Positions 3,959 to 59,826 of a DNA stretch of 64,000 nucleotides are shown in pieces. Within the stretch, counting starts at the first letter, position 1, and every line of letters starts with the position of its first letter. Made by a program: the position numbers and the translations under genes. This DNA comes from a bacterium (GTDB lineage: Bacteria; Patescibacteriota; Minisyncoccia; UBA6257; GWB1-50-10), in NCBI GenBank assembly GCA_021825465.1, contig JAKAGX010000001.1, positions 5,347 to 69,346 on the forward strand, given 5' to 3'. The notes under the pieces are model-generated. The model had not been told where the DNA came from and did no database searches. It worked only from the letters and a program-made list of their open reading frames with translations.

Positions 3959-4067
3959 ATTGATGCCTCTCTTTTTTGAGTGATCAGATAATGGAAGATA
4001 GCAAAAAGAACAAAAACTCTATGGTTTTCAATATACCAGAAAATTGACAAAATGTCAATCCTCCAGC

Positions 4068-24494: not shown

Positions 24495-24521
24495 ACTAAC
24501 TACTATATACCAAATACTCGT

Positions 24522-31581: not shown

Positions 31582-31619
31582 ATATCTATATTACCTTAAA
31601 ACAATCCCCAAGGGAGTAA

Positions 31620-31689
31620 GCCGGATACTCCCGCGAAGGCTAAGAGCTTTAGCGTCGCCCCGGAGGGAGCCTCTGCGGGGGTATCCGGC
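31620..31689. repeat. Structured intergenic repeat element, copy A (long hairpin with conserved loop)
   Basis: The outer stem gccggatactcccgc/gcgggggtatccggc is 15 bp with one G-U pair. The loop contains the conserved 'cgcgaaggctaaga ... ccccggag ... agcct' and an inner hairpin gctaa-gagct-ttagc. Confidence 0.55.
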
Positions 31690-31695
31690 GAACTC

Positions 31696-33462: not shown

Positions 33463-33528
33463 ACTCTTATTCTATATCAGTTCCCAGCTTTAGCGAGCGG
33501 GGCGCCTACCGGTGCCCCGCCCGCATAG

Positions 33529-35315: not shown

Positions 35316-36977
35316 CTATAATACCCTATCTTGATAACATTCTTCGCAGACGATTTTCTGATATCCCCACTCCGGCGGATAGTAATGGATGATCGGCCTC
35401 GAGCAGAAAAAGCACATTCCTTCATACGGCGTCGTGACCGTCAGGGGTTTCATGCGCTCCAGGTTGCGCCGATCTGGATGGCGGCTCGGCAAAGGTATGC
35501 CCTGTTCTTTATAAAACGCAAGTTCCTGAGGCGCTATGTTGAACCGCCATTTAGTTTCGGGGCAAACGATCGCTTGCTTCGAAAAATCGTTGTCGACGCC
35601 GTCAATGACATCCGGAACCTCATCGCCCGATATACCTTCATAGGCCTGGTCTTGAATGTCTTCCCACAAGCCGCCTTTTTCCTCTATGGATTCGCGCGTC
35701 TCGGGGAAATACATTTGCCCGGTCGACAGGTTGTATCCGCAGTAAGCCAGCGAATATGGGAAGAACGTCCCCCACGTTCCGTCGGCGGTCATTCGGTCTT
35801 TGATCTTTTTTACAAGATCGTTGTATTCCGACTCCGAATACTGCTTGTTCAAAATACAGTACTTCTTCTTCCGCAAGCCGACGCATCCGAAACAGTACTC
35901 GCATTCTTCGCAATATTCGAGGTAGGCGCTGTAGCGGCAATTGCCGCACCGGGACGTGGCAACGGTCCCATAATTATATCCATCCATCATGCTCAAAGCC
36001 GCGTTCTCGGCGATGGTGCCTGCCGCATGGACAACCTCGCGCTGTTCGTAGCCGCGAAGGAGATAGTAGCCATTCTCGGACTTTTGGGCGAAGTACGATT
36101 CTTTGCAATTCTTGCATTCTTCAAGGAAATTCCCGGTTGAATCGACAACTTTGAGGTTGCGGTCCGCCTTATGAATGACCTCGCGGGCGACGACATCGGC
36201 AAATTCCTTCTTCAATCGCTCGACCTCCCGCCTTGAGTTCAAGCGATACTCTTTCATCTTCTCAAAATATCCCTCCTTGGAATACTGCTTGTTCAGGATG
36301 CAGTATTGTTTATTCCTCAAATTCCAGCACATAAAGCAGTTCTTCACGTTCCGGCAATCATAGAGAAACGCGCTGTCCATACTGTCGCGCGCATCGAAGG
36401 AATGTCGGACCTTGTACGACTTGAAGCAATAGGTGCAATCATACGAACGCTCAACATCGAAGCAGAAGGTGAGATCCGTTGAATTTTTGCAATTCACCGT
36501 ACGGTAGGCATAGTTCACTTCTTCGCAGTCGAGCATCGATCGGCAGAGGTAGCAATTCTTGCAGCTCCAGGCATCGTCGCTCCAATCGCAATTCGTGCTC
36601 ATGGTCCCCGACCGGTGGGGATGCGGCGTTTTTCGCTGGACTTCCGCATACTGCTCGAAGAACGGCCGTGAGAAGTCATACGATCTGCCGTATTGCAACG
36701 GATCCCACACGTCCGACATCCACTCGTCGTAATCGTAGAGCGGGAAGGGCGTTTTTTCCGAGAACGTCGTGATGATGGTTTTCCCGGAGAGTGCCGACGT
36801 CGTTTTGCGGAATTTGCCGAAAACCCAGAAAGCCGTAAGGTTCTTCCAAATGCAAACATGACATTCCTGGGGCACCGGGATCCCGGTTTTTTCATAGAGA
36901 ACAAGACTGTCCGGCGGAACCGAGAATTCCTTTCTACACGTCTTACATATTTTTGTTTCTTCCCCTCCCATACTCAA
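35316..36977 (-). CDS. Cys-rich zinc-ribbon repeat protein, array paralog 7 (divergent member)
   Basis: The 553 aa ORF has a degenerate N-terminus, 'CKTCRKEF ... YEKTGIPVPQECHVC'. It keeps the central 'NLRNKQYCILNKQYSKEGY' and 'GLRKKKYCILNKQYSESEYNDL' modules. The C-terminus is truncated. Confidence 0.8.
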   Translation of the reverse strand: MSMGGEETKICKTCRKEFSVPPDSLVLYEKTGIPVPQECHVCIWKNLTAFWVFGKFRKTTSALSGKTIITTFSEKTPFPLYDYDEWMSDVWDPLQYGRSYDFSRPFFEQYAEVQRKTPHPHRSGTMSTNCDWSDDAWSCKNCYLCRSMLDCEEVNYAYRTVNCKNSTDLTFCFDVERSYDCTYCFKSYKVRHSFDARDSMDSAFLYDCRNVKNCFMCWNLRNKQYCILNKQYSKEGYFEKMKEYRLNSRREVERLKKEFADVVAREVIHKADRNLKVVDSTGNFLEECKNCKESYFAQKSENGYYLLRGYEQREVVHAAGTIAENAALSMMDGYNYGTVATSRCGNCRYSAYLEYCEECEYCFGCVGLRKKKYCILNKQYSESEYNDLVKKIKDRMTADGTWGTFFPYSLAYCGYNLSTGQMYFPETRESIEEKGGLWEDIQDQAYEGISGDEVPDVIDGVDNDFSKQAIVCPETKWRFNIAPQELAFYKEQGIPLPSRHPDRRNLERMKPLTVTTPYEGMCFFCSRPIIHYYPPEWGYQKIVCEECYQDRVL

Positions 36978-36995
36978 TACTATATACCAAATATC

Positions 36996-38759
36996 TTATA
37001 CTATCTCTTTCTGGTAGCACTCCTCGCAATACACGATTTCCGGCTTCTCCGGAGCGTACGAGGTTTCAAATTCCTTGGAACATTTTCTCGAATGACCGTG
37101 GCTTTGGTTGTCACACATACACCCGCGGTGCCAGAGCTTCATGGGCGTTCGTTTCTTGAGACGTCCGTAGTGCCGGCAATTCGGGCAAAGCGTCGGGAGC
37201 GGAATATTCATTTTTTTATAGAACGCGAGTTCTTCCGGCGTGATGCGGAATGCTTCCGTGCATTGCTCTTCGCATTTCCCTTCGTGTGCACAACCGATCG
37301 TTTCTTTTACGACATCGTCCGAAACAATGCGGATGGTATCGGGCAAGTCGGTCGGTTTCAGGGTTATTCCATAATTCCGCGTTTCCGGATCGCGCCACTG
37401 GTACCCCATTGCCGTTGCTTTTTCTTTCGTCGAAGGGAAATACTCCTCGGCCACCGTCTCGTTGTATGCAAAAAGGGCGATTTCCGGCGGGAAAAACTCG
37501 CCGAAACCGTACCGCACTCCCCTTTTATCGACATACGGCATCTCGTCCATGTGTTTTTTAATTTTCGGGAGAAGTTCTTCATATTCCTCCTCCGAGTATT
37601 GCTTGTTCAAAATGCAATACTCCTTGTTCCGCATACCGTAGCAGCCAAACATATTATGCGACCCGTGCGTATGGACGCTCCACCACACGTCGCTCGAATC
37701 ATAGACCACGACACCGCCCACGATCCTCGACGAGCTGTTGATATCGACGCCTTCGTAGAGGAGTTCCGACTTCCAGCCGGCCCCCGGCCCGCAATCGTAT
37801 ATTCCCTTGCTTCCGAATCCGCTCCAGTTCACATACCGGCAATCTTCCGTGTTATCGCCCACGAAATCGAAGCAATCCCGGCAGTTCTTCGTATTCTGCA
37901 AATGATCGCCGGTCGAACCGACCGAATTCACGATGTCCGCATACTTATGGATCGCCTTCACATACACCTCATCCTGGAATTTCCGTCGGACTTCTTCGAG
38001 GGCCTTCCGGCTTCCAAGGTTCAGTTCCTTGACTCTCTTTTCGTATTCATCCTTCGATATCTGCTCATTGAAAATACAATATTGCTTATTTCTCAAATTC
38101 GCACATCCGATGCAGTCCCGGCAGTTCTTGCAGTTGTAAAGGAACCAGGAATCGCTGCAACCCTCGCAGTTCGAGGAATACAAGAGCCGGTACGAACCGC
38201 TGACGTACGAATCATCGTAGCAAAGCTCGCTGCCGTCGACGATATAGAGATCGAGCGAATCCTTGTCCTTCACCATACGGTTCGCATACATCACGTTCTC
38301 GTTCCATCCGCCGGCGGAAACGAGGTGACAGTTCTTGTTCCACGCGGCGGAGCTGCAATATTCGCTATTCACCGAATTCGTGTTCGAAAGCGCGATCAAG
38401 GGCACGCGGTGCAGGAGCTCCGCATACTGTTCGAAAAACGGCTTCGAGAAATCGTATTCCTTGCCGTATTGCATCGGATCCCATGCGTCGCTCCACCAAT
38501 ATTTTTGATCGTATACCGTATACGGTATATCTGCCGGATGAAGACTGATGACGTCTTCCGTATGTCCCGGCGCATTGCATTTCCGCTTATAGTACGTGCG
38601 CTCGTTCCGCCACACCATCCGCCGCGCGGCGCGGCATTCCGGACACCACGTGGGCGCCGGTACGCCGATCTGTCGGTAAAAATCAAGATCAGCGGGGTCG
38701 ATTTGAAACCCCCTTCCGCAATTCCTGCATATTCGGCCCTCTGAATTCATTGAGTTCAT
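36996..38759 (-). CDS. Cys-rich zinc-ribbon repeat protein, array paralog 8
   Basis: The 587 aa ORF has the same architecture. Its start codon is directly abutted by an upstream hairpin and U-tract. Confidence 0.85.
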   Translation of the reverse strand: MNSMNSEGRICRNCGRGFQIDPADLDFYRQIGVPAPTWCPECRAARRMVWRNERTYYKRKCNAPGHTEDVISLHPADIPYTVYDQKYWWSDAWDPMQYGKEYDFSKPFFEQYAELLHRVPLIALSNTNSVNSEYCSSAAWNKNCHLVSAGGWNENVMYANRMVKDKDSLDLYIVDGSELCYDDSYVSGSYRLLYSSNCEGCSDSWFLYNCKNCRDCIGCANLRNKQYCIFNEQISKDEYEKRVKELNLGSRKALEEVRRKFQDEVYVKAIHKYADIVNSVGSTGDHLQNTKNCRDCFDFVGDNTEDCRYVNWSGFGSKGIYDCGPGAGWKSELLYEGVDINSSSRIVGGVVVYDSSDVWWSVHTHGSHNMFGCYGMRNKEYCILNKQYSEEEYEELLPKIKKHMDEMPYVDKRGVRYGFGEFFPPEIALFAYNETVAEEYFPSTKEKATAMGYQWRDPETRNYGITLKPTDLPDTIRIVSDDVVKETIGCAHEGKCEEQCTEAFRITPEELAFYKKMNIPLPTLCPNCRHYGRLKKRTPMKLWHRGCMCDNQSHGHSRKCSKEFETSYAPEKPEIVYCEECYQKEIV

Positions 38760-38795
38760 TATAAAACAAATGCTCCGCGGTTAAACGCAGAGCAT
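38760..38795 (-). terminator. Intrinsic terminator candidate for the MFS/hypothetical island, abutting the start of paralog 8
   Basis: On the minus strand the stem AUGCUCUGCG-uuuaac-CGCGGAGCAU has one mismatch. It is followed by UUGUUUUAUAA and then immediately by the ATG at 38759. Confidence 0.45.
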
Positions 38796-38820
38796 CGAAA
38801 CAATCACAAACAGGAGGACG

Positions 38821-42688: not shown

Positions 42689-43921
42689 ATGAACCCGGAA
42701 CGGATAACCCAGCCTATAGAAACCGAGAATAGGGAGGAACGAGAAAGAGAACTCGCCAAGCGGCTGACTGCCCTTGAGGTCCATTTTGCGAACGTACGGT
42801 ACCAGGATCAAGTTACCGAAAGAGAAAGGATCTATTCCGATTTCAGTGATTCACTTAATAAAAACACTCCCATCATAAGAAGGATGCTTAATAGATATTC
42901 CAATACCGTCCATGGAGATAAGGAGGAGAACCAGAAATTGAAATCATTCGCAACTTTTTTCCTCCACGAAGTTGATAGGATATATCAAGAAACGCCGAAT
43001 CGGGAACGGAGGGAGGAACTGATCACTCAGTATGTCTTCGATGCTTACGCCAATTTAAAAAAAGAAGAACCGAGCAAAATCGAAAGAATGATAGAAAAAG
43101 ACACAACCATCGGAGTTATAAAAGTGGAGCCCGGAACACACGAAAACCGCCGTATGGCGGAAGCGGGATTCGGCCCGGAGGAGGAATTCCTACCGATCCA
43201 CTTCCCCGCCTTCTACGAGAGCGGGCCGGAAAAATCGCTGCTTACAGAAATCAATGCGTCATTCACCCAACTTGCCGAAATAGTCCCACAAAAATATCCC
43301 GAAGCACGGGGAATCATCGGCGAATCGTGGCTCCTTTCCCTTCCCGCCGCAGAACGACTCGGATTCAAAAAGGTCATGACGCTCGAAAACCGGTTCGACG
43401 GCGACAGCCTCTGGTCCCAATTCATCGATCAAAACGGAAACATCAGCAAAAGCCGGTTCGATGAGTTCATGAGAACGGGCAAGCCGCCATATGCCGTGAC
43501 GCTCAGCTACATTCCCATCGAAGAATTCTTGAGCAAATACCTTCCGTCGGAGAAAAAAGGAGAGATACTGCTGAAGGAAATAGACCCGGAATGGAAAAAA
43601 GAAGACGCCCGAGAACTGGAAAAATACACGGACGAAGCTCACCGGCTAAGAAGCGACTGGGGAAACTTCGTTGAAGACAAGAATCTTTCTGTGGAAGAAT
43701 TCATGAAAACCTACCCCGCCATCGTGAGCATCATGACCAAAGCAGGTTGCTATGACGACCTCCTGAAGGTTCTCTCCGAGGCAAAAAACAGAAAACACAA
43801 TCTCCAAGAAATGGTGAAAATAATGCCTGCGGAAAGCGAAAGAATCGAGAGAGCGTACACGGAATACGTAAAGAATCTAAAAAGCAGAAAATACCGGGAC
43901 CGTAAGGTTTTTATAAAATAG
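42689..43921 (+). CDS. Hypothetical protein (plus-strand gene inside array region)
   Basis: The 410 aa ORF is charged and helical with no recognised motif. Confidence 0.5.
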   Translation: MNPERITQPIETENREERERELAKRLTALEVHFANVRYQDQVTERERIYSDFSDSLNKNTPIIRRMLNRYSNTVHGDKEENQKLKSFATFFLHEVDRIYQETPNRERREELITQYVFDAYANLKKEEPSKIERMIEKDTTIGVIKVEPGTHENRRMAEAGFGPEEEFLPIHFPAFYESGPEKSLLTEINASFTQLAEIVPQKYPEARGIIGESWLLSLPAAERLGFKKVMTLENRFDGDSLWSQFIDQNGNISKSRFDEFMRTGKPPYAVTLSYIPIEEFLSKYLPSEKKGEILLKEIDPEWKKEDARELEKYTDEAHRLRSDWGNFVEDKNLSVEEFMKTYPAIVSIMTKAGCYDDLLKVLSEAKNRKHNLQEMVKIMPAESERIERAYTEYVKNLKSRKYRDRKVFIK

Positions 43922-44549
43922 TCTTCAGCTCCGACAGACTATTTACCGTTTTCCAAGCAGTCTTTTCGAGTTCCTCCGAATCAGGTGATTTAAGAGCAAT
44001 GCCCCGCATTGTTTCAAAAAGACTTATATCATTCACGCTGTCGCCCACAGCAATACACTCCTCAGGTCTCAAATCCCGCTCATCGCAGAATTTCTCGAAC
44101 TGTTCCAGCTTCTTGACAGCTTGGTTTTTGAAATATTCGAAGTCAACCAACTTTCCATCTTTATCCCAAACGAGCGTAGCATTTGCGAAATAGCAATCAA
44201 TACCCAACTTCCTCGCCACGATCTCCGCAAAGAGGTCCGTGGAGCCAGTGATGAGACACGGCACAATCTTTCTCTCCTCCAAGCAACCGATGATTTCCTT
44301 CGCACCATCCGCAAGAGGAATATCGTCGTATAAAGATGTAAAGAATTCTTTATTATCCTTTTCTGTCCTTGCCCACATATCGAGCAGTTTGTGCTTTGAA
44401 TCTTCATAATCATCGCCGTCCCCATCCAGCATGTCGCGGTAAAACTGGCGGTGATCATCAACAGACGCGCCCATGGCCTCTGTGATCGCGATCCACGAAT
44501 TCCCCTTCACGAGCGTCCCGTCAATGTCAAAGATAACCGCTTTTATCAT
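43911..44549 (-). CDS. HAD-family hydrolase (phosphoserine-phosphatase-like)
   Basis: It has HAD motif I 'VIFDIDGTL' and motif IV 'AVGDSVNDISL'. The start was moved to the internal Met. It forms an ATGA overlap with the stop of paralog 10. Confidence 0.7.
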   Translation of the reverse strand: MIKAVIFDIDGTLVKGNSWIAITEAMGASVDDHRQFYRDMLDGDGDDYEDSKHKLLDMWARTEKDNKEFFTSLYDDIPLADGAKEIIGCLEERKIVPCLITGSTDLFAEIVARKLGIDCYFANATLVWDKDGKLVDFEYFKNQAVKKLEQFEKFCDERDLRPEECIAVGDSVNDISLFETMRGIALKSPDSEELEKTAWKTVNSLSELKTIL

Positions 44550-46246
44550 AAAACAATAGATTGATAGCACTTGTTGCAATAAACGATCGAGGCCTCCTTC
44601 TCGGGATACCGCGAAACGAACTGGATGCCGCACTTCGAGCAGGTGCGCGGATGCCGAGCCATATTTCCGAGCCACAGTTTGAATTTCTCATTGACGCGGC
44701 AGAAGGGACATTCACGGGGCAGCGGCAGGTCCATGTGGCGCAGGAACGAGAGTTCCGCAGGAATCAGTTTGAATCCCCGTCCGCATTTCGAGCAACCGAT
44801 AACCTCATTCAAAATACCATCCTTCGCATCCCGGATGTGGTCAGGCAGATCGGCGGCCGGAATCGTCGTTTGAAATTCACTCTTCGGCAGATTGCGCCAC
44901 TCATACCCCCTTTCTGCGGCTTTTTCTCTCGAGAGCGGGACAAAACAGTTGGCATCCGATTCGTTGTAGGCGTTCGGCGAAAGCTCGACGGGAAAAAACT
45001 CGCCATACCGGTATTCCCGCCCCTTCTTGTCCCGGTAAACATTCGCGTCCATATCCTTTTTGATCCGCTCGGCCAGTTTTTTATACTCTTCCTTCGGATA
45101 TTTCTTGTTCAAGATGCAATACTCCGCCTTCTTCATCCCGGCACAGCCGAAACAATGGGAACTCGAGGTAAGCGTTTTGCAGTATTCCAAATCTTCTCCC
45201 TTCATAACCTCCTGGCTGAATCTGATGTTCGAACTTTGATTGCCGACAACCGAAGCGTCATACGAAAGAGAAAGGTTTTCTCCCCAATAGGTTATGTCGT
45301 AGCTGTCCGCTATGCCGTCGGATACCATGCTCACGTACCGGCAGTTCTCGCCGTCATTCACCTGGAACGAATCTTTGACGTTCTTGGAATCATAAATGTG
45401 CGCTCCCCAGCAATCGACGTTCCGGTCGCCGAATTCCGCTTTCGGAATCTGCGTCGCCCAAAACGCTTCGGCTTCATGGAGCGCTCTTTGGTATCCCTCG
45501 TACGACCCCAGATCGTATTTCGCGATCTCTTTTTGATATTCTTCTTTCGAGTATTGCTTGTTCTTGATGCAATATTTCTTGTTCTTGACGCTCGCACACA
45601 TACGGCAATCCTGGCAATTCGAAGCATCTTTCATGAAAGCGCAGTTCAAGAGTTCCACGGCGTAGTTCCGGAGGCCGATCCCGCGATTGCATCTCCATGC
45701 ATGCATCGAATCATAGAGCCATTCCGAATTGAGGCAGAGAGTGCAATCCCAAACGGATTTATCATGTTCCACATAAAACCCGTATGCGGAGTCCTCGACG
45801 TAATTCGCCTGGTAGAGAAGATAGCAATTTTTGAGATTCGCGGCATTGCTCGTATAGGGGGAATCCTTCGATGTCTGGATGTCGACGGATAACCCCAAAA
45901 GCGGCACTTTGTGCATCAAGTCGTCGAACTGTTCAAGAAACGGCCGAGAAGGATCATATTCCCTCCCCTCCGCATACTGGTCCCATCCGTCACCCCACCA
46001 GCATTCGGGACAATAAACAACATAGGGCGCATCGGGCGCATACACCGAGATCACGTTTTTCTTGCAAAGATCGCACCTCCGTTTGAAGAGATTGAAGGTA
46101 TTGAACCATGCGAGCCGCCTTTCGAGCCGACACTCGGGGCAAAAGGTCGGCGGCGGGACTTGGATTCGCTCATAGAACGAGAAATCCTCGGGTTCGATGG
46201 TGAACTCCTTTTTGCAGTTTTGGCAGGTTTTGATTTCAGTATTCAT
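44546..46246 (-). CDS. Cys-rich zinc-ribbon repeat protein, array paralog 10 (C-terminal variant subfamily)
   Basis: The 566 aa ORF has the canonical N-terminus. Its C-terminus differs, 'CPFCRVNEKFKLW ... CSKCGIQF ... YCNKCYQSIVL', and is shared with paralog 13. Confidence 0.85.
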   Translation of the reverse strand: MNTEIKTCQNCKKEFTIEPEDFSFYERIQVPPPTFCPECRLERRLAWFNTFNLFKRRCDLCKKNVISVYAPDAPYVVYCPECWWGDGWDQYAEGREYDPSRPFLEQFDDLMHKVPLLGLSVDIQTSKDSPYTSNAANLKNCYLLYQANYVEDSAYGFYVEHDKSVWDCTLCLNSEWLYDSMHAWRCNRGIGLRNYAVELLNCAFMKDASNCQDCRMCASVKNKKYCIKNKQYSKEEYQKEIAKYDLGSYEGYQRALHEAEAFWATQIPKAEFGDRNVDCWGAHIYDSKNVKDSFQVNDGENCRYVSMVSDGIADSYDITYWGENLSLSYDASVVGNQSSNIRFSQEVMKGEDLEYCKTLTSSSHCFGCAGMKKAEYCILNKKYPKEEYKKLAERIKKDMDANVYRDKKGREYRYGEFFPVELSPNAYNESDANCFVPLSREKAAERGYEWRNLPKSEFQTTIPAADLPDHIRDAKDGILNEVIGCSKCGRGFKLIPAELSFLRHMDLPLPRECPFCRVNEKFKLWLGNMARHPRTCSKCGIQFVSRYPEKEASIVYCNKCYQSIVL

Positions 46247-47988
46247 GCCACTTCGCTGTTATAGCACTGTTCGCAGTACACGATCTCGGGGCGATCCGGC
46301 GCATACGAGGTTTCGAATTCATTCGAACATCTCCCCTCCGGATGATGCGTATGTTCTCCGGAATTTTTATATATCTTGTAATCACACATGCACTGTCGCG
46401 CATAGAGCTGGACCTTGTTCCTTTGCGATATTCGAGCCGCATGACGGCAGTCCACGCATGTCCTCGGCAACGGGATCCCTTCGGCGCGCAGAAAGTCGAG
46501 TTCCGGACGGATGATCCGGTAGGCGCGCTTGCACCTCTCGCATGAAATGATCTTCGAAAGAATATCATCTTGAACGTCGCGGATGGAATCGGGAAGCTCG
46601 GACGCATTCATACTCGTTTCGTATTCCTTGCTTTCCGGATCATCCCACGCGTATCCTTTCGCGAGCGCTTCTTCTTTGGTAAGCGGAAAGTGATCAAATA
46701 CTAACGAGGAGTTGTAGCCGAAGGGGGCGTGCTCGATCGGGAAGAATTCGCCGTAGCGATAGATAATTCCCTCCGTATTTACATAGGGATCCTCGTCCAT
46801 GTGTTTTCTGATCTTCTGAACCAATGCCTCATACTCCTCCTTTGGATACTGCTTGTTCAGGATGCAGTATTGTTTATTCCTCAAGCCCACGCATCCGAAG
46901 CAGTTCGAGGAATTTTTCATGAACATGCAATATTCAAGATCCGAATTTTCCGGCCAACACTCCACGCAAAATTTAAGGCGGGAAATATCCCCTCCGCAGA
47001 TCGATGTTTCGTAACAAAGATCCGTGTTCTTTCCCCAAATCGAAACATCCATAGAATCTTTGGTGGACGGCTCGTTTAGATCTTGGCAATGACGGAGATC
47101 TTCCCCTCCCCGTATGAGGTAACCGCGGTAAACATTTTTGGAATTGGAGATGTATTCACCGAGAACATTCGCATTGTTCGTCCCGGTCATATATCGTACG
47201 GGAGAACCAAGCCAGAATTTTTTGACTCTATTCTTCATCTCCGACACCGAAGTCCATTTATCCAAGCGGAGCCGATCGATTCTCTTCTGATACTCTTTTT
47301 TGGACAATTTCTCGTTAAAGAAGCAATAGCTTTGATTCCTTAAATTGACACACCCGAAGCAATTGATGCATCCCCGGCAGTTCCGGGAGAACCAAACGCC
47401 GGTGCAATCCTCGCACTGGGAGGAAAAATGGGTCTGATGGCAAGACGTATGCCAGAAGGATTCATAGCACCGCTCGCATTTTTTCACGTGGGAGCTTTCA
47501 AAACAGTCCCTCGAGAAATCCACTTGGTTGCCATAGGCGCAGTTTTCCGCTCCCGAACAGTTGAAGACCAGGTAGCAATCCTTCGACCAGCCGATATTCG
47601 CGGTAAAATCCGAGCGCACATTCGACTCCGTAGATCGTGGTACCCGCGGCACGGCCTGCGCAAGTTCATATATCTGTTCAAAAAAGGTCTTATGTTCGTC
47701 GATATCTCTGCCATACTGGAGAGCGTCCCAGTCATCTTCACGCCATTCATCTTCGTCATACAGGGTTACTTTAGACCCTTTAGAGTAGAGAGCGAGGATC
47801 CGCTTGCCTGATTTAACGCTCGTATTCCAAAAAATCTTCCGCTCGTTGCGATACGCAAGCCGCCGCTGGAATCGACACAGCGGGCACCATGTCGGCGGCG
47901 GGACTTGGATTCGCTCATAGAACGAGAAATCCTCCGGTTCGATGGCAAATTCCTCATGGCAATTCTGGCAGGTATGGGTTTCAGACAT
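46243..47988 (-). CDS. Cys-rich zinc-ribbon repeat protein, array paralog 11
   Basis: The 581 aa ORF has the canonical ends. It has an ATGA overlap with paralog 10. Confidence 0.85.
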   Translation of the reverse strand: MSETHTCQNCHEEFAIEPEDFSFYERIQVPPPTWCPLCRFQRRLAYRNERKIFWNTSVKSGKRILALYSKGSKVTLYDEDEWREDDWDALQYGRDIDEHKTFFEQIYELAQAVPRVPRSTESNVRSDFTANIGWSKDCYLVFNCSGAENCAYGNQVDFSRDCFESSHVKKCERCYESFWHTSCHQTHFSSQCEDCTGVWFSRNCRGCINCFGCVNLRNQSYCFFNEKLSKKEYQKRIDRLRLDKWTSVSEMKNRVKKFWLGSPVRYMTGTNNANVLGEYISNSKNVYRGYLIRGGEDLRHCQDLNEPSTKDSMDVSIWGKNTDLCYETSICGGDISRLKFCVECWPENSDLEYCMFMKNSSNCFGCVGLRNKQYCILNKQYPKEEYEALVQKIRKHMDEDPYVNTEGIIYRYGEFFPIEHAPFGYNSSLVFDHFPLTKEEALAKGYAWDDPESKEYETSMNASELPDSIRDVQDDILSKIISCERCKRAYRIIRPELDFLRAEGIPLPRTCVDCRHAARISQRNKVQLYARQCMCDYKIYKNSGEHTHHPEGRCSNEFETSYAPDRPEIVYCEQCYNSEVA

Positions 47989-48012
47989 ACTAAATACTAT
48001 ATACCAAATACT

Positions 48013-49713
48013 TCATACTATCTCCTTCTGATAACATCCTTCACAATAAATGATCTCCTTGTTTTCCGGAGAAAAACTCGTCTCGAACTCGTTCGGGCAC
48101 CGGCCGGAATGATCATGTCCGGTTTTATCGCACATGCAATTGCGGTGCCATGTCTTGTTCGGCCCGCGCGCCGCGAACCGCCGTTCGTGCCGGCAATCCG
48201 GGCACTCGCGCGGGAGCGGGATCTCCAGGTGTTTGTAAAACTCGAATTCGCTCGGGATGATGCGGAAATTTTTCTTGCATTTCGTGCACGCGAAGATCTC
48301 TTTCGGCACGTCGATACCTCCGATGTCGCGGATCGAATCGGGTATCTTGTCCCACGGCATCGTTTCCTTGCCGTAGGTCCCCCGCGGATGGTCCTCCCAC
48401 TTGAATCCCTGCCGTAGCGCTTCTTCTTTCGTGAGCGGAAACTGGCCCTCTGCGGCCGTCTCGTTGTATCCGAAGGCACTGACGGATGCCGGGAAGAATT
48501 CGCCGTAGATCCCCTCCTCCCTCATTTTCGCGATGATCTCCTTCCGCAATGTTCCGTACTCTTCGGGCGAATATTGCTTATTCAGGATGCAGTAATTCTG
48601 CTTTCGGAGACCCGTGCACCCGAAGCAGTTCGTGCAGTTGAAGCAGTAGAAAGAATAGTCCATGAAACTCGACGACCAGCAGACGGCGGTGGCAACATAA
48701 TGCGAGACGTCGATGCCGGCATTGATCGAATTGTAGACCAGCTCCGCGCTTCTGCCCGCCGTGTCGGCATCGACGCAATCTTTCGCGTTCCGCCAGATAT
48801 GGACGCCGTATTTACTGTCCTCGGAATCGTAGCAGTGGAAGCATGACTTGCAATTCTTCGCGTCTTCGATGTAGTTCCCCGAAGAGCCGGGCGAGTTGTA
48901 GACTTGAGCGAACCGGCGCGGCTCCCCCATCGCGAAATCCTCGAATTTCTTTTTGAATGCCTCGAGGCCGCTCCACGTATCGAACTGCGCTTCTTCGAGG
49001 AACTTTTCGTAATCTTCTTTCGAAACCGGCTTGTTGAAAATGTGGTACTGCTTATTGAACAGATTGACGCAACCCACGCAATTCGAGCAGCCGCGGCAAT
49101 CAAGGAGAAAATACCCGTCGTGCGAATCGTGGCATCCTTTGCTCCAAAACAAACGATACGAGTTGTAGCAGTCGTCGCTCTCGTACGAAAGTTCCGTCTT
49201 GCTCGCGAAGGACGTATCGACGCAATCCTTGCACTCTTGGATCCAGTAGCAGTGGGTACATCCCTCGTTGTTCGACGACTCCACGAGCATATAGCAATTC
49301 TTGTTGTCGGCCGATATGTTCACATACTCGGAGTTGACGCTCCGCTCGTGCATCAGACCGACCTTCGGCACTTTGTTCCAAAGTTCGGCGAACTGATTTA
49401 AGAACGGCTTTGCGGGGTCGTACTCAATACCGAGATCGCGACCATCCCAGCCGTCGGAAAACCAGCAATCGTGGCACCACACCGCGTACGGTTTATTCGG
49501 ACTGTACATCGAGATGCCATCCTTGCCGCATTTGTCGCACTTCCGGGAATAGAACGAGCGTTCATTTCTGAACGCCAATCTTCTTTGTGCGCGGCACGCC
49601 GGGCACAGCCTGGGCGAAAGAACGCCCATCTTTTCGTAAAAACCAAAATCCTCCGGTTCGATGGCAAATTCCTCATGGCAATTCTGACAAGTTCTGGTTT
49701 CGGTTTTAGTCAT
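48013..49713 (-). CDS. Cys-rich zinc-ribbon repeat protein, array paralog 12
   Basis: The 566 aa ORF has the canonical ends. Confidence 0.85.
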   Translation of the reverse strand: MTKTETRTCQNCHEEFAIEPEDFGFYEKMGVLSPRLCPACRAQRRLAFRNERSFYSRKCDKCGKDGISMYSPNKPYAVWCHDCWFSDGWDGRDLGIEYDPAKPFLNQFAELWNKVPKVGLMHERSVNSEYVNISADNKNCYMLVESSNNEGCTHCYWIQECKDCVDTSFASKTELSYESDDCYNSYRLFWSKGCHDSHDGYFLLDCRGCSNCVGCVNLFNKQYHIFNKPVSKEDYEKFLEEAQFDTWSGLEAFKKKFEDFAMGEPRRFAQVYNSPGSSGNYIEDAKNCKSCFHCYDSEDSKYGVHIWRNAKDCVDADTAGRSAELVYNSINAGIDVSHYVATAVCWSSSFMDYSFYCFNCTNCFGCTGLRKQNYCILNKQYSPEEYGTLRKEIIAKMREEGIYGEFFPASVSAFGYNETAAEGQFPLTKEEALRQGFKWEDHPRGTYGKETMPWDKIPDSIRDIGGIDVPKEIFACTKCKKNFRIIPSEFEFYKHLEIPLPRECPDCRHERRFAARGPNKTWHRNCMCDKTGHDHSGRCPNEFETSFSPENKEIIYCEGCYQKEIV

Positions 49714-49742: not shown

Positions 49743-51449
49743 CTATGCCGTCAATTCACTGTAGCATTTCTTGCAAAGGATGTTTTGGGCATCGTGATTA
49801 CTGATCGATGTCATAAATTCGGCCCCACACTTCGAACACGCTCTCTTTTCCATCTTCAAGTTATCGACCCATATATCGATCTTCTTATTGATCCTGCAAA
49901 AAGGACATTCGCGGGGCAACGGATAATTCATCTTCCGAAGGAACTCCAATTCATCCCTTGTTATTCTGAACCCCCGGCCGCATCGAGCGCAACCGATGAT
50001 CTCGCTTAAAATTGAATCCGGCGCATCCTTGATATGATCCGGCAGATCGGCGGCTTTTTTCGTCACCTCGTATTCTTTTTTTTCAAAAGCACGCCATCCG
50101 TAGCCTTCGTCGCGCGCATCGCGCTCGGTCATCGGAAAAAAATTTTGAGCCAACGTCTCGTTATATGCGAACGTGCTCATTTCGATCGGGAAGAATTCCC
50201 CATATCGATACACCCTGCCCTTCCGATCGGTGTACGGCATGTCCATCATATGTTGGCGTATTTTCGGAACGAGAGCATCGTATTCCTCGGGGGTATATTG
50301 CTTGTTTAAAATGCAATACTGCCCCTTTTTAAGGGAAATGGATCCGAAGACATGTGCCCCGCCGTAAATGAGAAATGAATATTCGGAGTCGACCAAATTC
50401 AATCCCGACCCATAATTGAATTTCACTTCGCTCGCGTTTTCACCGACATTCGGCGAATCGTAGGAAAGCGTGAGATTATTTCCCCAGCTTGTAATGTCGT
50501 AGCAATCTTTCGTTCCCGGAAGGTAGAGCATCGCGAGATACTTTGAATTTTCTGCGCCCAAAACTTCGTAGCATTCCTTGCAATTCCGCGATTGGAACAC
50601 GTTGTTCCCCGTGCAGTTTTCGGTAAATTCATCGAAGACCGGCTTCGGCGGGAACTTTTTCCAATGCTCTTCGGCAAGCTTCTGGATCTCTTGATACTCG
50701 CGATACGACCCGAGGTCCCATCTTTTGATCTCTTTGAAATATTCTTCTTTTGAATACGGCTTGTTGAAAATATAGTATTTTTTATTCCTTAAATTGACCG
50801 AAGCGAAACAATTTTGGCATCCCCACGAATATTTCAAGAAGTATGAATCGATCGACTCCGTTACTTGCCCTCGAAGGCCGGCACATCGGGTGCATCGGTA
50901 TGTATGCATCGAATCGTAGCAAAGCTCCGAATTCATGATGAGCGATGAGTCGAAGACCGACCTGCTCTCTGTGACGTAAAAGCCGTACGCGGAATCCTCG
51001 TCGAAATCGGCGTGAAAGAGCATATAGACATTCTTGTTATTGCCGCTCAAGTGTGAATACGGCGAGGTCTTCAGGGTCATAAAATCCGTCGAGAGCGCCG
51101 GAAGCGGGGCTTCGCGCACAAGGTCCTTGAATTGTTCGAAGAAGGGCCGCGAAAAATCGTAATCGCGGCCGTAATCGCGGGGATCCCACGTATCACTGAA
51201 CCAGCAAGGCAAACAAAAAACCCGGTAGGGTGCGTCAGGCGCGTAAACAGAAATAGTATCCTTGCTGCACAAGTCGCACTTCCGCTTATAGAGGTTGATG
51301 ACATTCATAAACGCCAAGCGCCGCTTTTCGCGGCACTCGGGACAAAACGTCGGCGGAGGGACTTTTATCCTCTCATAAAAAGCGAGATCCTCAGGCTCAA
51401 TGACAAATTCGCGGCGGCAGTTCTGGCAAACTTCTTTCCGGGGACCCAT
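49743..51449 (-). CDS. Cys-rich zinc-ribbon repeat protein, array paralog 13 (5'-most; C-terminal variant subfamily)
   Basis: The 568 aa ORF has the canonical N-terminus and the variant C-terminus 'CPFCRINKKIDIW ... CSKCGAEF ... CKKCYSELTA'. Confidence 0.85.
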   Translation of the reverse strand: MGPRKEVCQNCRREFVIEPEDLAFYERIKVPPPTFCPECREKRRLAFMNVINLYKRKCDLCSKDTISVYAPDAPYRVFCLPCWFSDTWDPRDYGRDYDFSRPFFEQFKDLVREAPLPALSTDFMTLKTSPYSHLSGNNKNVYMLFHADFDEDSAYGFYVTESRSVFDSSLIMNSELCYDSMHTYRCTRCAGLRGQVTESIDSYFLKYSWGCQNCFASVNLRNKKYYIFNKPYSKEEYFKEIKRWDLGSYREYQEIQKLAEEHWKKFPPKPVFDEFTENCTGNNVFQSRNCKECYEVLGAENSKYLAMLYLPGTKDCYDITSWGNNLTLSYDSPNVGENASEVKFNYGSGLNLVDSEYSFLIYGGAHVFGSISLKKGQYCILNKQYTPEEYDALVPKIRQHMMDMPYTDRKGRVYRYGEFFPIEMSTFAYNETLAQNFFPMTERDARDEGYGWRAFEKKEYEVTKKAADLPDHIKDAPDSILSEIIGCARCGRGFRITRDELEFLRKMNYPLPRECPFCRINKKIDIWVDNLKMEKRACSKCGAEFMTSISNHDAQNILCKKCYSELTA

Positions 51450-51451
51450 AG

Positions 51452-51640
51452 CTACTCCGCGTCGTCGCCTTCCTCTTCTACATTAATATGATTCTCGGTA
51501 AGGAGCCCGGCTTCCTTCAGTTTTTTCTGCTGCATTTTGAAAATCCTCTTGCATCGAGCGGTCAAAATCAAACCTCTCACGATCTTGTACGCGAGAAAAA
51601 GAATGACTAATCCTATTACGATGTACCAAAAAACATTCAT
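51452..51640 (-). CDS. Small single-TM protein, first gene of the array operon
   Basis: The 62 aa ORF has the TM helix 'VFWYIVIGLVILFLAY' followed by a basic and then acidic tail. Its stop is 2 nt before the ATG of paralog 13. Confidence 0.5.
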   Translation of the reverse strand: MNVFWYIVIGLVILFLAYKIVRGLILTARCKRIFKMQQKKLKEAGLLTENHINVEEEGDDAE

Positions 51641-51649
51641 CGTGAAAGT

Positions 51650-51678
51650 ATTATATCACAAATATGATGAAAAATCAA
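51650..51678 (-). promoter_or_regulatory. Sigma70-like promoter (TTGATT-17-TATAAT), near-leaderless for the 51640 start
   Basis: On the minus strand the -35 is ttgatt (51673-51678), the spacer is 17 nt and the -10 is tataat (51650-51655). The ATG is 9 nt downstream of the -10. Confidence 0.55.
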
Positions 51679-51689
51679 GATTTCTTTTC

Positions 51690-51995
51690 CTATCCCACAA
51701 CTGTCGTCATCCATTCCTTATATGCCCTATTGACGCGTCGAACATCCACGACCGCAACAAGCGGCGTTGAATAGGAATGGTTTTGCTGGATGAGATCTTC
51801 GACATCCTGCACCTTCGACTCATTGGTCTTGATGAGAAGCGCATACTCGTTCTCGCACTTCATTTTCCCCTCCCAGGTATAGCACGATTCGATCGGCCAC
51901 GTGTTGACGCACGCGGCGATCTTCCGCTCGACAATGAGCTTTGCAAGCTTTCTGGCTTCCTCAACACCTTCACAGGTTGAATAAATGAAAACCAT
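51690..51995 (-). CDS. cutA: Divalent-cation tolerance protein CutA
   Basis: The 101 aa ORF contains 'ERKIAACVN ... YTWEGK' and is typical of CutA1. Confidence 0.75.
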   Translation of the reverse strand: MVFIYSTCEGVEEARKLAKLIVERKIAACVNTWPIESCYTWEGKMKCENEYALLIKTNESKVQDVEDLIQQNHSYSTPLVAVVDVRRVNRAYKEWMTTVVG

Positions 51996-55505: not shown

Positions 55506-56522
55506 CTACGCCTCCCGAACGGAGAACCTGCCGTCATCGAGCTTCTTAAAATGATTCTTATTTTGCAGATTCAAGATAACCGTGTTTTCCTTCACCAACC
55601 GCTGTGCCTTCACGAGTTCAATGATCTTGTCCACCTTTTGAGGCCCGTTCTTCTTCAAAAGATCCACCAGAACGTCTTTCACCGTTCCCGGCTCGAAGCC
55701 GTGCTCACGAAGCGCGTACATTCCCCTTCCGACCAAAACGAATCGATGATCTTTGATGAGTTCGTTGTGCACCGTTTGAACATGCGGAACTTTTTTGTCC
55801 AATCCGTATTTATACGAGTACTTGGCGATGTCCGTGAAGTGGAGCGGCGCTCCATGTTTCCTTAATACCAAGTAGACCCTGTCGCGGATCGTTTTCGGTT
55901 CTATTTCCGGCCAGTTTTTAAGGCCGAAGTCTCCGAAGATGTTCGTCCCGAAGTGCTTCGGGATCGAGAGGAAATGGCATGATGCAAGATCCTTGCACTG
56001 GCCGAGGTACGACTTGCTCGTCAAGATCGCCGTTTTTTCTTTCGTGGTCAAAAACTTCGTCATACCGTTCACGAACTCGAGGAATTTCTTCCGCGCATCG
56101 TTCGTTGCATACCAGTAAGCGTTCATTTTGTCGTCTTCCTTGGCATACATCGGTTCGTTGGAGACCAACAAAACGAAGCGCACTTTTTCTTTCGCGTTCT
56201 TTGTCTTTGCATCGATCTTCAGGCCGTAAAGGACGTCGTTCAAGAAATCTTCGTCCAGTTTCACGCCACCCGCCGAAAGGAGGTGTTTTTTCGCAAAATC
56301 GACGATTTCCTTTCCATCCGTCTTCGTCTTTTCCCGGATCTTCTTCAATGCTTGTTCTTCGATTTGCCGTACCCGTTCCCGCGTAATGCCTATTTCATCG
56401 CCGATCTCTTGGAGCGTTTCCGTTTTTCCGTTCTTCAAACCGAACCGGCCGACAACGATCCGCCGCTGTTTGGGTGGTAGAGTCAAAAGAATATCGTCAA
56501 TGATGGCATTCACGTTTTTCAT
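55506..56522 (-). CDS. Sigma-70 region-4 (HTH) domain protein with unknown C-terminal domain
   Basis: The N-terminal 'LPPKQRRIVVGRFGLKNGKTETLQEIGDEIGITRERVRQIEEQALKKIRE' is a close match to sigma70 region 4.2. Regions 2 and 3 are absent. Confidence 0.65.
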   Translation of the reverse strand: MKNVNAIIDDILLTLPPKQRRIVVGRFGLKNGKTETLQEIGDEIGITRERVRQIEEQALKKIREKTKTDGKEIVDFAKKHLLSAGGVKLDEDFLNDVLYGLKIDAKTKNAKEKVRFVLLVSNEPMYAKEDDKMNAYWYATNDARKKFLEFVNGMTKFLTTKEKTAILTSKSYLGQCKDLASCHFLSIPKHFGTNIFGDFGLKNWPEIEPKTIRDRVYLVLRKHGAPLHFTDIAKYSYKYGLDKKVPHVQTVHNELIKDHRFVLVGRGMYALREHGFEPGTVKDVLVDLLKKNGPQKVDKIIELVKAQRLVKENTVILNLQNKNHFKKLDDGRFSVREA

Positions 56523-57477: not shown

Positions 57478-58778
57478 GCCAGTTGTTTCTTTTCGCGGCT
57501 TTCAAAAACCCTGAGGAGCGTTCGCGTGGTGGTTATGGCGGAAAACAAGCTCACGAGGACCCCGATAAAAAGAGACAAAGCGAAGCCCTGCACGAAACTC
57601 GACGTAAAATAGTAAAGGACTGCCGACGTAATGAGAGTCGACACGTTCGAATCCCGAATGGATGTCCATGCCCGCTTGAATCCTTCCTCGACCGCGGAAG
57701 CATGGCTCAAACCGCGCTGGAGCTCCTCCTTCGTCCGTTCAAAAACCAAAACATTCGCATCGACGGCCATGCCGATGGACAAGATAAAACCGGCGATCCC
57801 CGACAGCGTCATCGTAACCGGCACGATCTTGAAGATGGCGAGCGTGATCGCAATATAAATAAGAAGCGCTACCGAAGCAAAGATGCCGAGTTTCTTGTAA
57901 TAAATGAGCATGAAGACCATGACCGCCAAGGTTCCCACGATGCCTGCCAAGATAGCCGTGTCGAGCGCATTTTTACCGAAATTGGAACTTATCGTTTGCT
58001 GATTCACGAGCGTGATCGGAGCCGGAAGAGCGCCGGCATTGAACCGCTCAACGAGCGTTTGAGCGGTTTGGACCGTGAAGTTTCCCGTTATTTCGGCTTT
58101 TCCGCCGGTTATCGTCTCCTGGACCACCGGCATTTCGATCAACTGATCGTCCAAAAATATCGCAATGGGCTTTCCGACATTCTTTGAGGTCAAATCCTGG
58201 AACAGCGTTGCGCCTTCAGAATTGAATTCGATGTCCACTTGGGGCTGATTGGTCACCGAATTGAAAGACATTTGAGCTCCGACGACATACCTGCCATTCA
58301 AACCGGTCGGAATGAATGCGAGATTTTGGCCGGCAAGGGTCGACGTCGAAGAAGTCGAGAGCGCAGCAGTCGACGTAGCCGGGATCTCTTGAACCTCCCG
58401 AAAATCCAAAAACGGCGTTGCGCCGATCTCTTTGATGGCTTGATTGACATCCTTCACGCCCGCAAGCTCCACGACCAGCCGCTCATTGCTCCCTACGGTC
58501 TCGATGTAAACCTTTGGTTCGGAAACGCCGAAGAGGTTCACCCTCTTTTCAATGACATCGCGAAGGCCGTTCACAACGGACTGTTCGTCCGCCGCCGGAA
58601 CTTTCGAGAGATCGATGTTGTACGTCAAAACGCTCCCTCCCGCCAAATCCAGACCGAGATTCCAGGGCCGGAAGTTCGAGATCGTCCCCCACAGCGGCTG
58701 ATAATCAAAAATGCCGGCAACGACTGCGATGGCCACAATGATGAAAAGCAGCGTTTTTGGTTTCAGTTTCTGAAACAT
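57474..58778 (-). CDS. secD: Protein translocase subunit SecD
   Basis: It has an N-terminal TM, a periplasmic domain and a C-terminal 6-TM bundle including 'LSGIAGFILSIGMAVDANVLVFER'. Confidence 0.8.
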   Translation of the reverse strand: MFQKLKPKTLLFIIVAIAVVAGIFDYQPLWGTISNFRPWNLGLDLAGGSVLTYNIDLSKVPAADEQSVVNGLRDVIEKRVNLFGVSEPKVYIETVGSNERLVVELAGVKDVNQAIKEIGATPFLDFREVQEIPATSTAALSTSSTSTLAGQNLAFIPTGLNGRYVVGAQMSFNSVTNQPQVDIEFNSEGATLFQDLTSKNVGKPIAIFLDDQLIEMPVVQETITGGKAEITGNFTVQTAQTLVERFNAGALPAPITLVNQQTISSNFGKNALDTAILAGIVGTLAVMVFMLIYYKKLGIFASVALLIYIAITLAIFKIVPVTMTLSGIAGFILSIGMAVDANVLVFERTKEELQRGLSHASAVEEGFKRAWTSIRDSNVSTLITSAVLYYFTSSFVQGFALSLFIGVLVSLFSAITTTRTLLRVFESREKKQLA

Positions 58779-58803
58779 CGGATATAGTTTATAATGAAAG
58801 CGA

Positions 58804-59826
58804 ATGAAAAATCAACTGGTGACCCTCGTACTTTCCGAGGTTCCCAAGGCGGTGAGGGGGAAGGTTTTTAAATCCGAGACGCAAAAAAGCTCTCCGCACT
58901 ATTTCCCCTCGTCCGTTCCCCATTTGGTGACCGTCGGCGAAGAAAAGAAGAAGATCGACGGGAGCGAAGTAACCTTTTCGATCCTCGGCTATATCCCCTA
59001 CATTCTCGTCATTCAAGCATCGATCGAGCTCAAAAACATCTTCGATCGCGAGCAAACGAGCGATTGGGAAAAGAGGTTGTACGAGGAAAGCTACACGATC
59101 GTCAAAAAGTGGGGCGGCAGCGAAGACATGAGCGAAATGTATTCGATCTTCGAGATCTCGGGATACGTCGGCGATCCGGAACAATTCCTCGTCCATGCCT
59201 CGACGATGGCCTCGCTCCTCAAATCGGAAACCATCAGCCTCGACCCGAAAGAGGTGGAGTACACTCTTTCCGCGCAAATCAAATACGCCAAACACGACCT
59301 CTCGATCATCGACTGGGACGGCGCGTTCCTTTTTGACGTCGAAGGCGACTTCGGCTTGGCCGTGGAACTTTTAATGCTCGCCAATCTCCAGCTCCTCCGC
59401 CACCGCATCCTCGACAAACGGTTGGACAACCAGCTTTTGAACATCCAAGACATCATGAAAAAACTCGGCGAAAAGAAATGGTTCTCCTCAACGAAGGCCG
59501 TTTCCGACGCAGCAAAGGATATCCTCGATCGGCGGCTGACATGGATTTCGGCATTCGAGTCGCTCGAACGGGACATCAAGCTCATCGGCGAGTGGTACTC
59601 GGCGCGATTTTACGACCTTGCAAGCCGCAAGCTTAAGTTGAGCGATTGGCGGACGGACGTCAAGGAAAAACTGGACTCGCTCGAGGATATTTATTCCTCC
59701 CTTGTGGAAAATTTCTCGGTTTCAGCAAAAGATCGAGCCGAATGGGTGGAACTCATCGCATGGTTCGTGCTCCAGGTCGGCTGGTTCATCCTCATCATTC
59801 TCGAGTTCCTCTACTTTACGAAATAA
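58804..59826 (+). CDS. Hypothetical protein with C-terminal TM helix (possibly DUF155/RMD1-like)
   Basis: The 340 aa ORF is soluble except for the C-terminal hydrophobic 'LIAWFVLQVGWFILIILEFLYF'. The family assignment is weak. Confidence 0.4.
   Translation: MKNQLVTLVLSEVPKAVRGKVFKSETQKSSPHYFPSSVPHLVTVGEEKKKIDGSEVTFSILGYIPYILVIQASIELKNIFDREQTSDWEKRLYEESYTIVKKWGGSEDMSEMYSIFEISGYVGDPEQFLVHASTMASLLKSETISLDPKEVEYTLSAQIKYAKHDLSIIDWDGAFLFDVEGDFGLAVELLMLANLQLLRHRILDKRLDNQLLNIQDIMKKLGEKKWFSSTKAVSDAAKDILDRRLTWISAFESLERDIKLIGEWYSARFYDLASRKLKLSDWRTDVKEKLDSLEDIYSSLVENFSVSAKDRAEWVELIAWFVLQVGWFILIILEFLYFTK

Follow-up and report, generated by a model that had tools for sequence, protein, structure and literature searches.

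A predicted near-leaderless sigma-70-type promoter for a cutA-linked small membrane protein gene in a Patescibacteria genome

We analyzed a 64 kb stretch of DNA (the window) in which a gene for a 62-aa membrane protein lies on the minus strand between cutA and an array of 13 Cys-rich paralogs, p1 to p13. We consider it probable that this cutA-linked small gene is served by a near-leaderless sigma-70 promoter of its own, whose transcript would extend to p13 and probably through the gene for a HAD hydrolase, not into the rest of the array.

The promoter site and its conservation

The 49-nt intergenic region leading from cutA to the small ORF reads, on the minus strand, GAAAAGAAATC-TTGATT-TTTCATCATATTTGTGA-TATAAT-ACTTTCACG-ATG. 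Direct reading of the sequence places the -35 hexamer TTGATT at 51673-51678 and the -10 hexamer TATAAT at 51650-51655. Between them lies the 17-nt spacer TTTCATCATATTTGTGA (51656-51672), which terminates in an extended -10 TGn with its TG at 51658-51657. The 9 nt ACTTTCACG (51641-51649), a discriminator or 0-3 nt leader without Shine-Dalgarno (SD) motif, separate TATAAT from the small-gene ATG at 51640-51638. The first-pass annotation had described TTGATT-17 nt-TATAAT on the minus strand, 9 nt before the ATG at 51640, and all of these elements are found as described. Judged as a sigma-70-type promoter, the site matches the consensus at 10 of 12 positions and has the extended -10 TGn in addition.

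Generic promoter scans of the window show no enrichment, with 13 sites found against 16.3 ± 3.9 expected in one count and 9 against 16.0 ± 4.0 in a second, so that a promoter-like match alone means little. We then applied a strict criterion combining a TTG-containing -35 with at least 4/6 matches, a 16-18 nt spacer, a perfect TATAAT and TGn. The small-gene promoter is the sole site answering this description on both strands of the 64 kb, against an expectation of 0.025 per simulated window, and this supports the sigma-70-type reading that underlies the earlier prediction of a strong promoter. We regard the site as a good candidate for a strong native promoter. The 12-mer TTGATTTTTCAT, which is shared with the secD promoter, was tried as a motif family and rejected: its 15 matches with at most 3 mismatches compare with 11.7 expected and are attributed to chance. 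Searches of the whole window with Rfam at gathering thresholds and with tRNA scans found nothing.

Conservation is, in our judgment, a stronger argument for a real promoter than the scan statistics. Across the 29 nt from -35 to -10 there are no changes relative to two strains whose third-codon-position divergence is 0.06-0.39 in cutA, the small ORF and p13. In contrast, the flanking non-coding 20 nt (11 upstream and 9 downstream) hold 7 changes summed over the same two strain comparisons, a difference for which a hypergeometric estimate gives p ~0.001. We extended the comparison to six lineages (the window, L106, L024, L107, L110 and L113) with small proteins 33-94% identical. All share a block made of CTTGATTT, a spacer containing ATTTGT, then (GA/TG)TATAAT. 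TTGATT and the 17-nt spacing are invariant in the six, while TATAAT is kept in five and reads TATAAC in L024. Conversely, the six lineages show no relationship in the stretch that separates the cutA stop from the -35 or in the 8-14 nt leading from the -10 box to the ATG, and the nucleotides between -10 and ATG vary between strains as well (ACTTTCACG, ACTTTTACG and ACTCTTACG). Hexamers and spacing that are kept while the flanks diverge form the footprint expected of a working promoter. The site is thus predicted to function as a housekeeping-type promoter of the sigma-70 family; elements of this type are ordinary, and this one is well backed by comparison.

In its TTG-containing -35, 17-nt spacer, TGn and perfect TATAAT, the site resembles the extended -10 (TGnTATAAT) sigma-70/SigA promoters of E. 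coli and Gram-positives. Gram-positive promoters carry a TRTGn '-16' motif, and TGTGATATAAT in the window fits it. Unlike in sigma-70/SigA promoters, the start codon follows here after just 9 nt, so that essentially no 5' UTR is predicted, and the consensus itself comes from bacteria other than the uncultured Patescibacteria host.

Transcription starts at or near start codons

Bacterial transcription usually starts 7 ± 1 nt after the -10, at a purine that follows a pyrimidine. At the small gene a CA step is found 6-7 nt after the -10, and the ATG begins 9 nt past it; the usual rule therefore predicts a transcription start site (TSS) at A51643, with a 3-nt leader. The start could lie as far downstream as the A of the ATG (51640), for a leader of 0-3 nt overall. 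None of GGAG, GAGG and AGGA occurs in the 40 nt upstream of the small-gene ATG, and the five other lineages have no SD there either. With the TSS placed by this rule, 'almost leaderless' seems a fair description of the small-gene mRNA. Nevertheless, the ATG here follows the -10 by 9 nt where 6 nt is the mode, and it is preceded by G where T is usual, so that a 1-3 nt leader is predicted to be more likely than a strictly leaderless mRNA. Because the corresponding distance is 8-14 nt in the other lineages, the small gene is best called 'short-leadered', not uniformly leaderless. The earlier proposal of a leaderless mRNA is consequently supported in its near-leaderless form, which is consistent with the geometry, the absence of an SD and the pattern in the window and the clade; the strictly leaderless form is less likely, given the 9 nt and the G at -1.

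That pattern is widespread. Of 45 genes in the window, 16 carry a TANNNT that ends 6-9 nt ahead of the ATG, against a background of ~0.7 per position, and the -35 scores of the genes with such a box are mostly 3/6 or lower. To this we added a clade sample of 507 ORFs from 82 other Patescibacteria loci (L017-L096 and L099-L100), fetched via the paralog family. The TANNNT distances in this sample form a sharp peak at 6 nt from the ATG (74 sites against a background of 15.7, or 4.7-fold), the next best three-base pattern being enriched just 2.1-fold, and the same 507 ORFs show no SD-motif peak. At the 74 sites, -15 and -14 form the TG of TGn, -17 is T, -9/-8 are A, -35..-33 read T-T-(G/T) and -1 is T. 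Read as sequence signatures, these features are RNA polymerase contacts that would make the A of the ATG the TSS. The promoter-on-start-codon layout is, by the same token, predicted to be the usual one here and not special to the small gene.

GeneMarkS-2 defines leaderless 'group C' genomes by this geometry (PMC6028130). The units studied here resemble those of group C (Mycobacterium, Streptomyces, Deinococcus) in having a Pribnow box 6-8 nt from first-gene starts and in forming part of a dual system, with internal genes on SD motifs or overlaps, AUG starts and a weak -35 at most sites (PMC6028130). They differ from group C as defined there (PMC6028130) in belonging to a different clade, and the small gene, at 9 nt (8-14 nt in relatives), is likelier to have a 1-8 nt leader than none. 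Our search of the literature on leaderless or Shine-Dalgarno initiation in Patescibacteria, CPR, Saccharibacteria and Parcubacteria found no statement either way, which is no proof of novelty.

Elsewhere in the window (58776-58816), secD (ATG 58778, minus strand) and a plus-strand gene at 58804 stand back-to-back across a 25-nt divergent spacer. Their -10 boxes, TATAAT (+) and TATAAA (-), overlap, and the -35 of each gene falls within the first codons of the other. Such overlapping -10 boxes would be workable only without leaders.

The small membrane protein, cutA and paralog 13

The 62-aa ORF (51452-51640, minus strand) is, on comparative evidence, a real protein gene, because the changes in it are mostly at third positions and because homologues down to 33% identity are found after cutA. 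Substitutions between close strains number 6/1/15 at codon positions 1/2/3. An exhaustive HMMER search identified homologues at 59% (P0124), 55% (P0125), 51% (P0123) and 33% (P0126) identity, and placed the family, which is tiny, in four 50%-identity clusters among 1.8 billion representatives. The distant members surfaced in that search only: a word-indexed search returned relatives at 92% identity or more, a profile search added only the L024 protein, and a metagenome scan yielded one extra locus at 89% identity. Residues W5, R22, T27, C30, K40, K42 and G45 are invariant in the alignment. Comparison with Pfam and NCBIfam gave no match, hits with E up to 10 being only noise (Arm_vescicular, TMEM156, Vpu and DUF7190).

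Hydropathy reaches 2.41 (Kyte-Doolittle, 19-residue window) at residues 3-21, consistent with a transmembrane (TM) helix at about residues 4-26. Past this helix come 7 K/R, in a basic juxtamembrane helix with the invariant Cys30, and then 7 D/E in an acidic tail. AlphaFold, run on an alignment that excluded the L106 protein, models a single helix over residues 3-43 with pLDDT 85-90 in the membrane part and a disordered tail. Membrane insertion is predicted, and by the positive-inside rule we infer that the N-terminus is outside and the C-terminal tail cytoplasmic. The first-pass annotation had called a small single-TM membrane protein, and the single hydrophobic helix, the coding constraint and the distant homologues all bear this out.

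In L113 an IS3-family transposase pair (rve, HTH_Tnp_1; 4001-5184) directly follows the small gene and cuts it to 50 aa. In L024 (3593-3644) the small protein is called at 78 aa from a TTG that overlaps cutA, likely a mis-set start. A 6-bp 5' stem, ACGAUG/CAUCGU, appeared in the predicted fold of the small-ORF mRNA; its sequence is not kept in distant relatives and we treated it as chance.

Single-pass membrane proteins of <70 aa such as AcrZ and KdpF modulate larger partners in bacteria. The 62-aa protein is like them in its size, N-terminal TM helix, agreement with the positive-inside rule and unstructured tail. Unlike them, it is unrelated to any Pfam or NCBIfam family, and cutA is its only constant neighbor.

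The cutA gene (51690-51995, minus strand; CutA1 family, Pfam 1.1e-30) is the conserved upstream neighbor, and the order cutA, small gene holds in every lineage with the small gene. Family members share the order sigma-r4 protein, DUF8128, ~180-aa protein, VirD4/HerA-like ATPase, cutA and small gene, followed by a Cys-rich paralog or, in L113, by the transposase gene instead. Other relatives have a ~139-aa cytidylyltransferase-like gene in the small-gene slot, or nothing. As judged from gene order, the small protein is a lineage-restricted family always encoded after cutA, and its gene appears to go with cutA and with a promoter of its own rather than with the paralog array. No terminator was found between cutA and the small-gene promoter, and for this reason read-through transcripts from upstream probably also cover the small-gene region. 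In all relatives the DUF8128-ATPase-cutA cluster is headed by a conserved 338-aa protein (window 55506-56522) with an N-terminal sigma-70 region 4 only plus a weak HARE-HTH match.

On its other side the small gene meets p13 (49743-51449, minus strand), which encodes a Cys-rich protein of 568 aa without a hydrophobic segment. The small-ORF stop TAG (51454-51452) is followed by CT and the p13 ATG at 51449, exactly the 2-nt distance that had been proposed, and a GGAG Shine-Dalgarno for p13 (51455-51458, minus strand), kept in all close strains, sits inside the last small-ORF codons, 5 nt before that ATG. TAG-CT-ATG with GGAG 5 nt upstream is typical of translationally coupled pairs. Unlike coupling in general, however, that of the small gene with p13 is confined to a species group; relatives instead show distances of 8, 18 or ~100-170 nt, or else a distinct -10 box. 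Specifically, the gap is 8 nt in L106 and 18 nt in L110, the latter including its own TAGAAT-6-ATG; it is ~170 nt in L024 and ~100 nt in L107, both with GC-rich hairpins and a separate -10 box. The tight junction is therefore, as far as these lineages indicate, specific to the species group of the window. We also screened 128 paralog starts at 80 loci and saw no small hydrophobic ORF whose end lay within 80 nt upstream of them; the L024 case (170 nt) escaped this screen and was found by tblastn.

The L107 paralog that follows the small gene (4300-4335) has ACG at the position of its relatives' ATG, before T-T-S-E-T-K-Q-C-Q-N-C. This ACG sits exactly 6 nt past a TAGAAT box, and the gene caller started 26 codons late. 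It may reflect a pseudogene, a sequencing error or a non-AUG leaderless start.

Transcription units in the paralog array

Downstream of p13 come, all on the minus strand, p12 (48013-49713) after a 29-nt gap and with no clear -10; p11 (46243-47988) after a 24-nt gap and with a TATAGT of its own 7 nt ahead of the ATG; p10 (44546-46246), overlapping p11 by 4 nt; and the gene for the HAD hydrolase (43911-44549; 212 aa from its real start at 44549; Pfam 1e-20), overlapping p10 by 4 nt. Neither p10 nor HAD has a signal of its own. A convergent plus-strand gene of 410 aa (42689-43921), called in 17 independent contigs, overlaps the HAD end by 11 nt and is thus reached after only four paralogs (p13-p10) and HAD. 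No terminator was found after HAD, and the predicted end of the first unit there is set by the convergent gene alone. This first unit likely comprises the small ORF, p13, p12, p11, p10 and HAD, as predicted from the gene layout; its internal structure is uncertain, p12 having no clear -10 and p11 having one.

Further along, after p9, an MFS transporter gene and a gene of 147 aa also lie inside the array. The latter has a near-consensus leadered promoter, TTGACA-18-TATAGT (39342-39313), plus an AAGGAGG SD. A terminator-like hairpin at 38769-38796 (minus strand), with an 11-bp stem and a T-run, then TTTGTTTT, is the best-scoring site of the region (z = -2.46), and in L011 its stem is conserved with a changed loop. 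An internal hairpin had previously been placed at 38760-38795; the hairpin is present, the coordinates were off. Directly after it comes the p8 -10 box TATAAT (38758-38763, minus strand), 7 nt before the second p8 ATG (38750), which is the start used by gene callers (584 aa). TAnnnT boxes stand 6-7 nt before the ATG of cutA, p11, p9, p8, p7, p5, p4, p1 and pepA, the box of p9 being a TAAAAT at 6 nt after a 240-nt divergent spacer. For the gene after pepA the distance is 8 nt, and for p6, with TATTAT, it is 4 nt. No -10 box is found at the genes with 4-nt overlaps (p10, HAD, p3 and p2), nor at p13 and p12. GC-rich hairpins precede the -10 boxes of p5 and p4 (-30 and -52 kcal/mol).

Since the promoter-on-start-codon layout is the usual one, several independently promoted units are expected, and we predict at least three in the array, probably many more. 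The first-pass annotation had proposed that a single promoter may serve the 13 paralogs, HAD and pepA, in a 13-gene array following directly on the small gene. The array turns out to be interrupted by the 410-aa, MFS and 147-aa genes, and the predicted elements (the convergent gene at 42689-43921, the hairpin before p8, the internal -10 boxes and TTGACA-18-TATAGT) speak against a single promoter.

Several further observations concern the spacers and starts of the array. A ~24-nt spacer, TATTTGGTATATAGTAnTnAGT, is nearly identical before the ATG of p11, p7 and pepA (47989-48012, 36972-36995 and 24495-24521), and the spacers before p1 and p9 share GTAAAATAAACAT-ATG; it appears that duplication of the paralogs also copied the spacers with their promoters. 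GC-rich hairpins free of a U-tract lie just upstream of inter-paralog -10 boxes in the window (33463-33528 and 31582-31695, both copies containing GCTAAAGC), in L024 (3830-4000) and in L107 (4187-4300), and could represent terminators lacking the U-tract, processing sites or a family of repeats. Calling rules that take the first start codon have likely misplaced some starts, including that of the L024 small protein: the p7 start is probably ATG 36971 rather than TTG 36977, and that of p8 probably ATG 38750 rather than 38759, which falls inside TATAAT. The p13-to-MFS stretch varies among near-identical strains in paralog number and in the presence or absence of HAD and the 410-aa gene (42689-44549 against L003, L097, L011 and L104), some strains having an HTH_17 gene on the opposite strand in this stretch, and p9 of L105 is broken into pieces of 167 + 376 aa.

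The 13 paralogs (24522-51449) contain 26-38 Cys and no hydrophobic segment, with the same CxxC...F.I.P.D..FY motif at the N- and C-termini. No Pfam or NCBIfam model matched them. The family is Patescibacteria-wide, with E < 1e-50 for at least 7,124 proteins among the 8,000 scored candidates, all annotated as hypothetical. At the family loci L017-L096 its members are often in tandem and often adjoin a VirD4/HerA-like ATPase; the ATPase of L099, which has a zf_Tbcl_2 domain, overlaps its paralog neighbor.

The reading we favor would work as follows. A promoter with a -35, a 17-nt spacer and an extended -10 would start RNA 0-3 nt before the small-gene AUG, most likely at A51643. The mRNA would have no ribosome-binding leader, so the small gene would have to be translated in leaderless mode. 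As p13 starts after a gap of only 2 nt, with a GGAG in the last codons of the small ORF, it would be part of this transcript, which would probably continue through p12, p11, p10 and HAD. Ribosomes ending the small ORF, or binding GGAG, would initiate on p13. The later paralogs and pepA would be served by their own -10 boxes 6-7 nt from their starts, some of them after hairpins.

Alternatively, one promoter could transcribe the small gene, the 13 paralogs, HAD and pepA as a ~27 kb message, with hairpins that only modulate read-through. Nearly all genes from 51640 down to 21719 are indeed on the minus strand with short gaps, HAD is followed by no canonical terminator, and the array of strain L011 is free of opposite-strand genes. 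We find this model very hard to accept, however: the convergent 410-aa gene overlapping the HAD end is enough on its own for it to fail, and a T-run hairpin before p8, the TTGACA-18-TATAGT of the 147-aa gene and ten further genes with -10 boxes 6-8 nt before the ATG, in a signature that is promoter-like clade-wide, argue in the same direction. It is unlikely, too, that the 62-codon ORF is just a leader or upstream ORF that loads ribosomes onto p13 or attenuates and encodes no functional protein. Its protein-level conservation down to 33% identity with invariant residues argues against this, as do L024 and L107, where ~100-170 nt with a hairpin separate the small gene from a paralog that has its own -10, and L113, where a transposase gene and no paralog comes next. 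What speaks for a leader ORF is again the 2-nt gap and the GGAG, together with a terminator-like hairpin with a T-rich tail inside the ORF (51598-51573), although terminator-like matches are at chance level overall (31 against 22.9). A leader-peptide attenuator was rejected, since the mRNA fold is no better than shuffles (z = +0.70) and the ORF is conserved as protein.

Two other explanations bear on the motifs themselves. TTGATT...TATAAT could be a regulator-binding site or a 3' element of cutA, the small ORF being expressed by cutA read-through. The lack of a terminator between cutA and the small ORF would allow this, and the conserved spacer ATTTGT goes beyond the needs of a bare promoter; the 12-mer TTGATTTTTCAT, common to the secD upstream region, might point to a regulator as well, but in secD it is also at the -35 position with a -10 box 9 nt from the ATG, and so is promoter-like there too. 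With conservation concentrated in both hexamers at exactly 17-nt spacing, and a leadered transcript that would present the AUG without an SD, we rate this explanation as quite improbable. Finally, the TAnnnT boxes might be non-SD translation-initiation signals in the style of the GeneMarkS-2 'group B', in which case the array could still be polycistronic. Many of the boxes do lie in 9-27 nt spacers between co-directional genes, with -35 scores that in the window are mostly 3/6 or lower. The features that accompany the boxes (TGn at -15/-14, a T at -17, another at -1 and a TTG placed exactly 17 nt upstream) are nonetheless contacts of the polymerase and not of the ribosome; moreover, TANNNT is enriched 4.7-fold, compared with 2.1-fold for the next best pattern, keeps a sharp 6-nt spacing and is absent from 4-nt-overlap genes. 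This possibility seems unlikely to us. The near-leaderless promoter for the small gene, with further promoters inside the array, remains the reading that we prefer.

A wider proposal, which we put forward tentatively and as a prediction, is that leaderless expression is the default across Paceibacterota-type Patescibacteria and that the small protein is a dedicated membrane partner of the PII-like CutA trimer. If so, nearly every gene that is not coupled by overlap would have its own extended -10 exactly 6 nt before the AUG, with SD use marginal, and such -10 promoters would be present even within the 9-30 nt spacers of tandem arrays. The small protein would then be expressed from the one promoter of the region with a full -35.

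Taken together, our analysis suggests that the array should be viewed as short, separately promoted units of strain-variable content, not as a giant operon with a single switch, and the small ORF that leads it as a conserved gene linked to cutA, not to the array. It also provides a testable signature for mRNAs that start at the start codon in Patescibacteria: TnTGnTAwAAT, 6 nt and ATG, accompanied by a T at -1 and a TTG 17 nt upstream. This signature matters for gene-start calling, examples being p8 with its second ATG, p7 as called from a TTG and the L024 small protein as called at 78 aa, and for the design of expression tools in the few cultivable members and for translation with reduced ribosomes.
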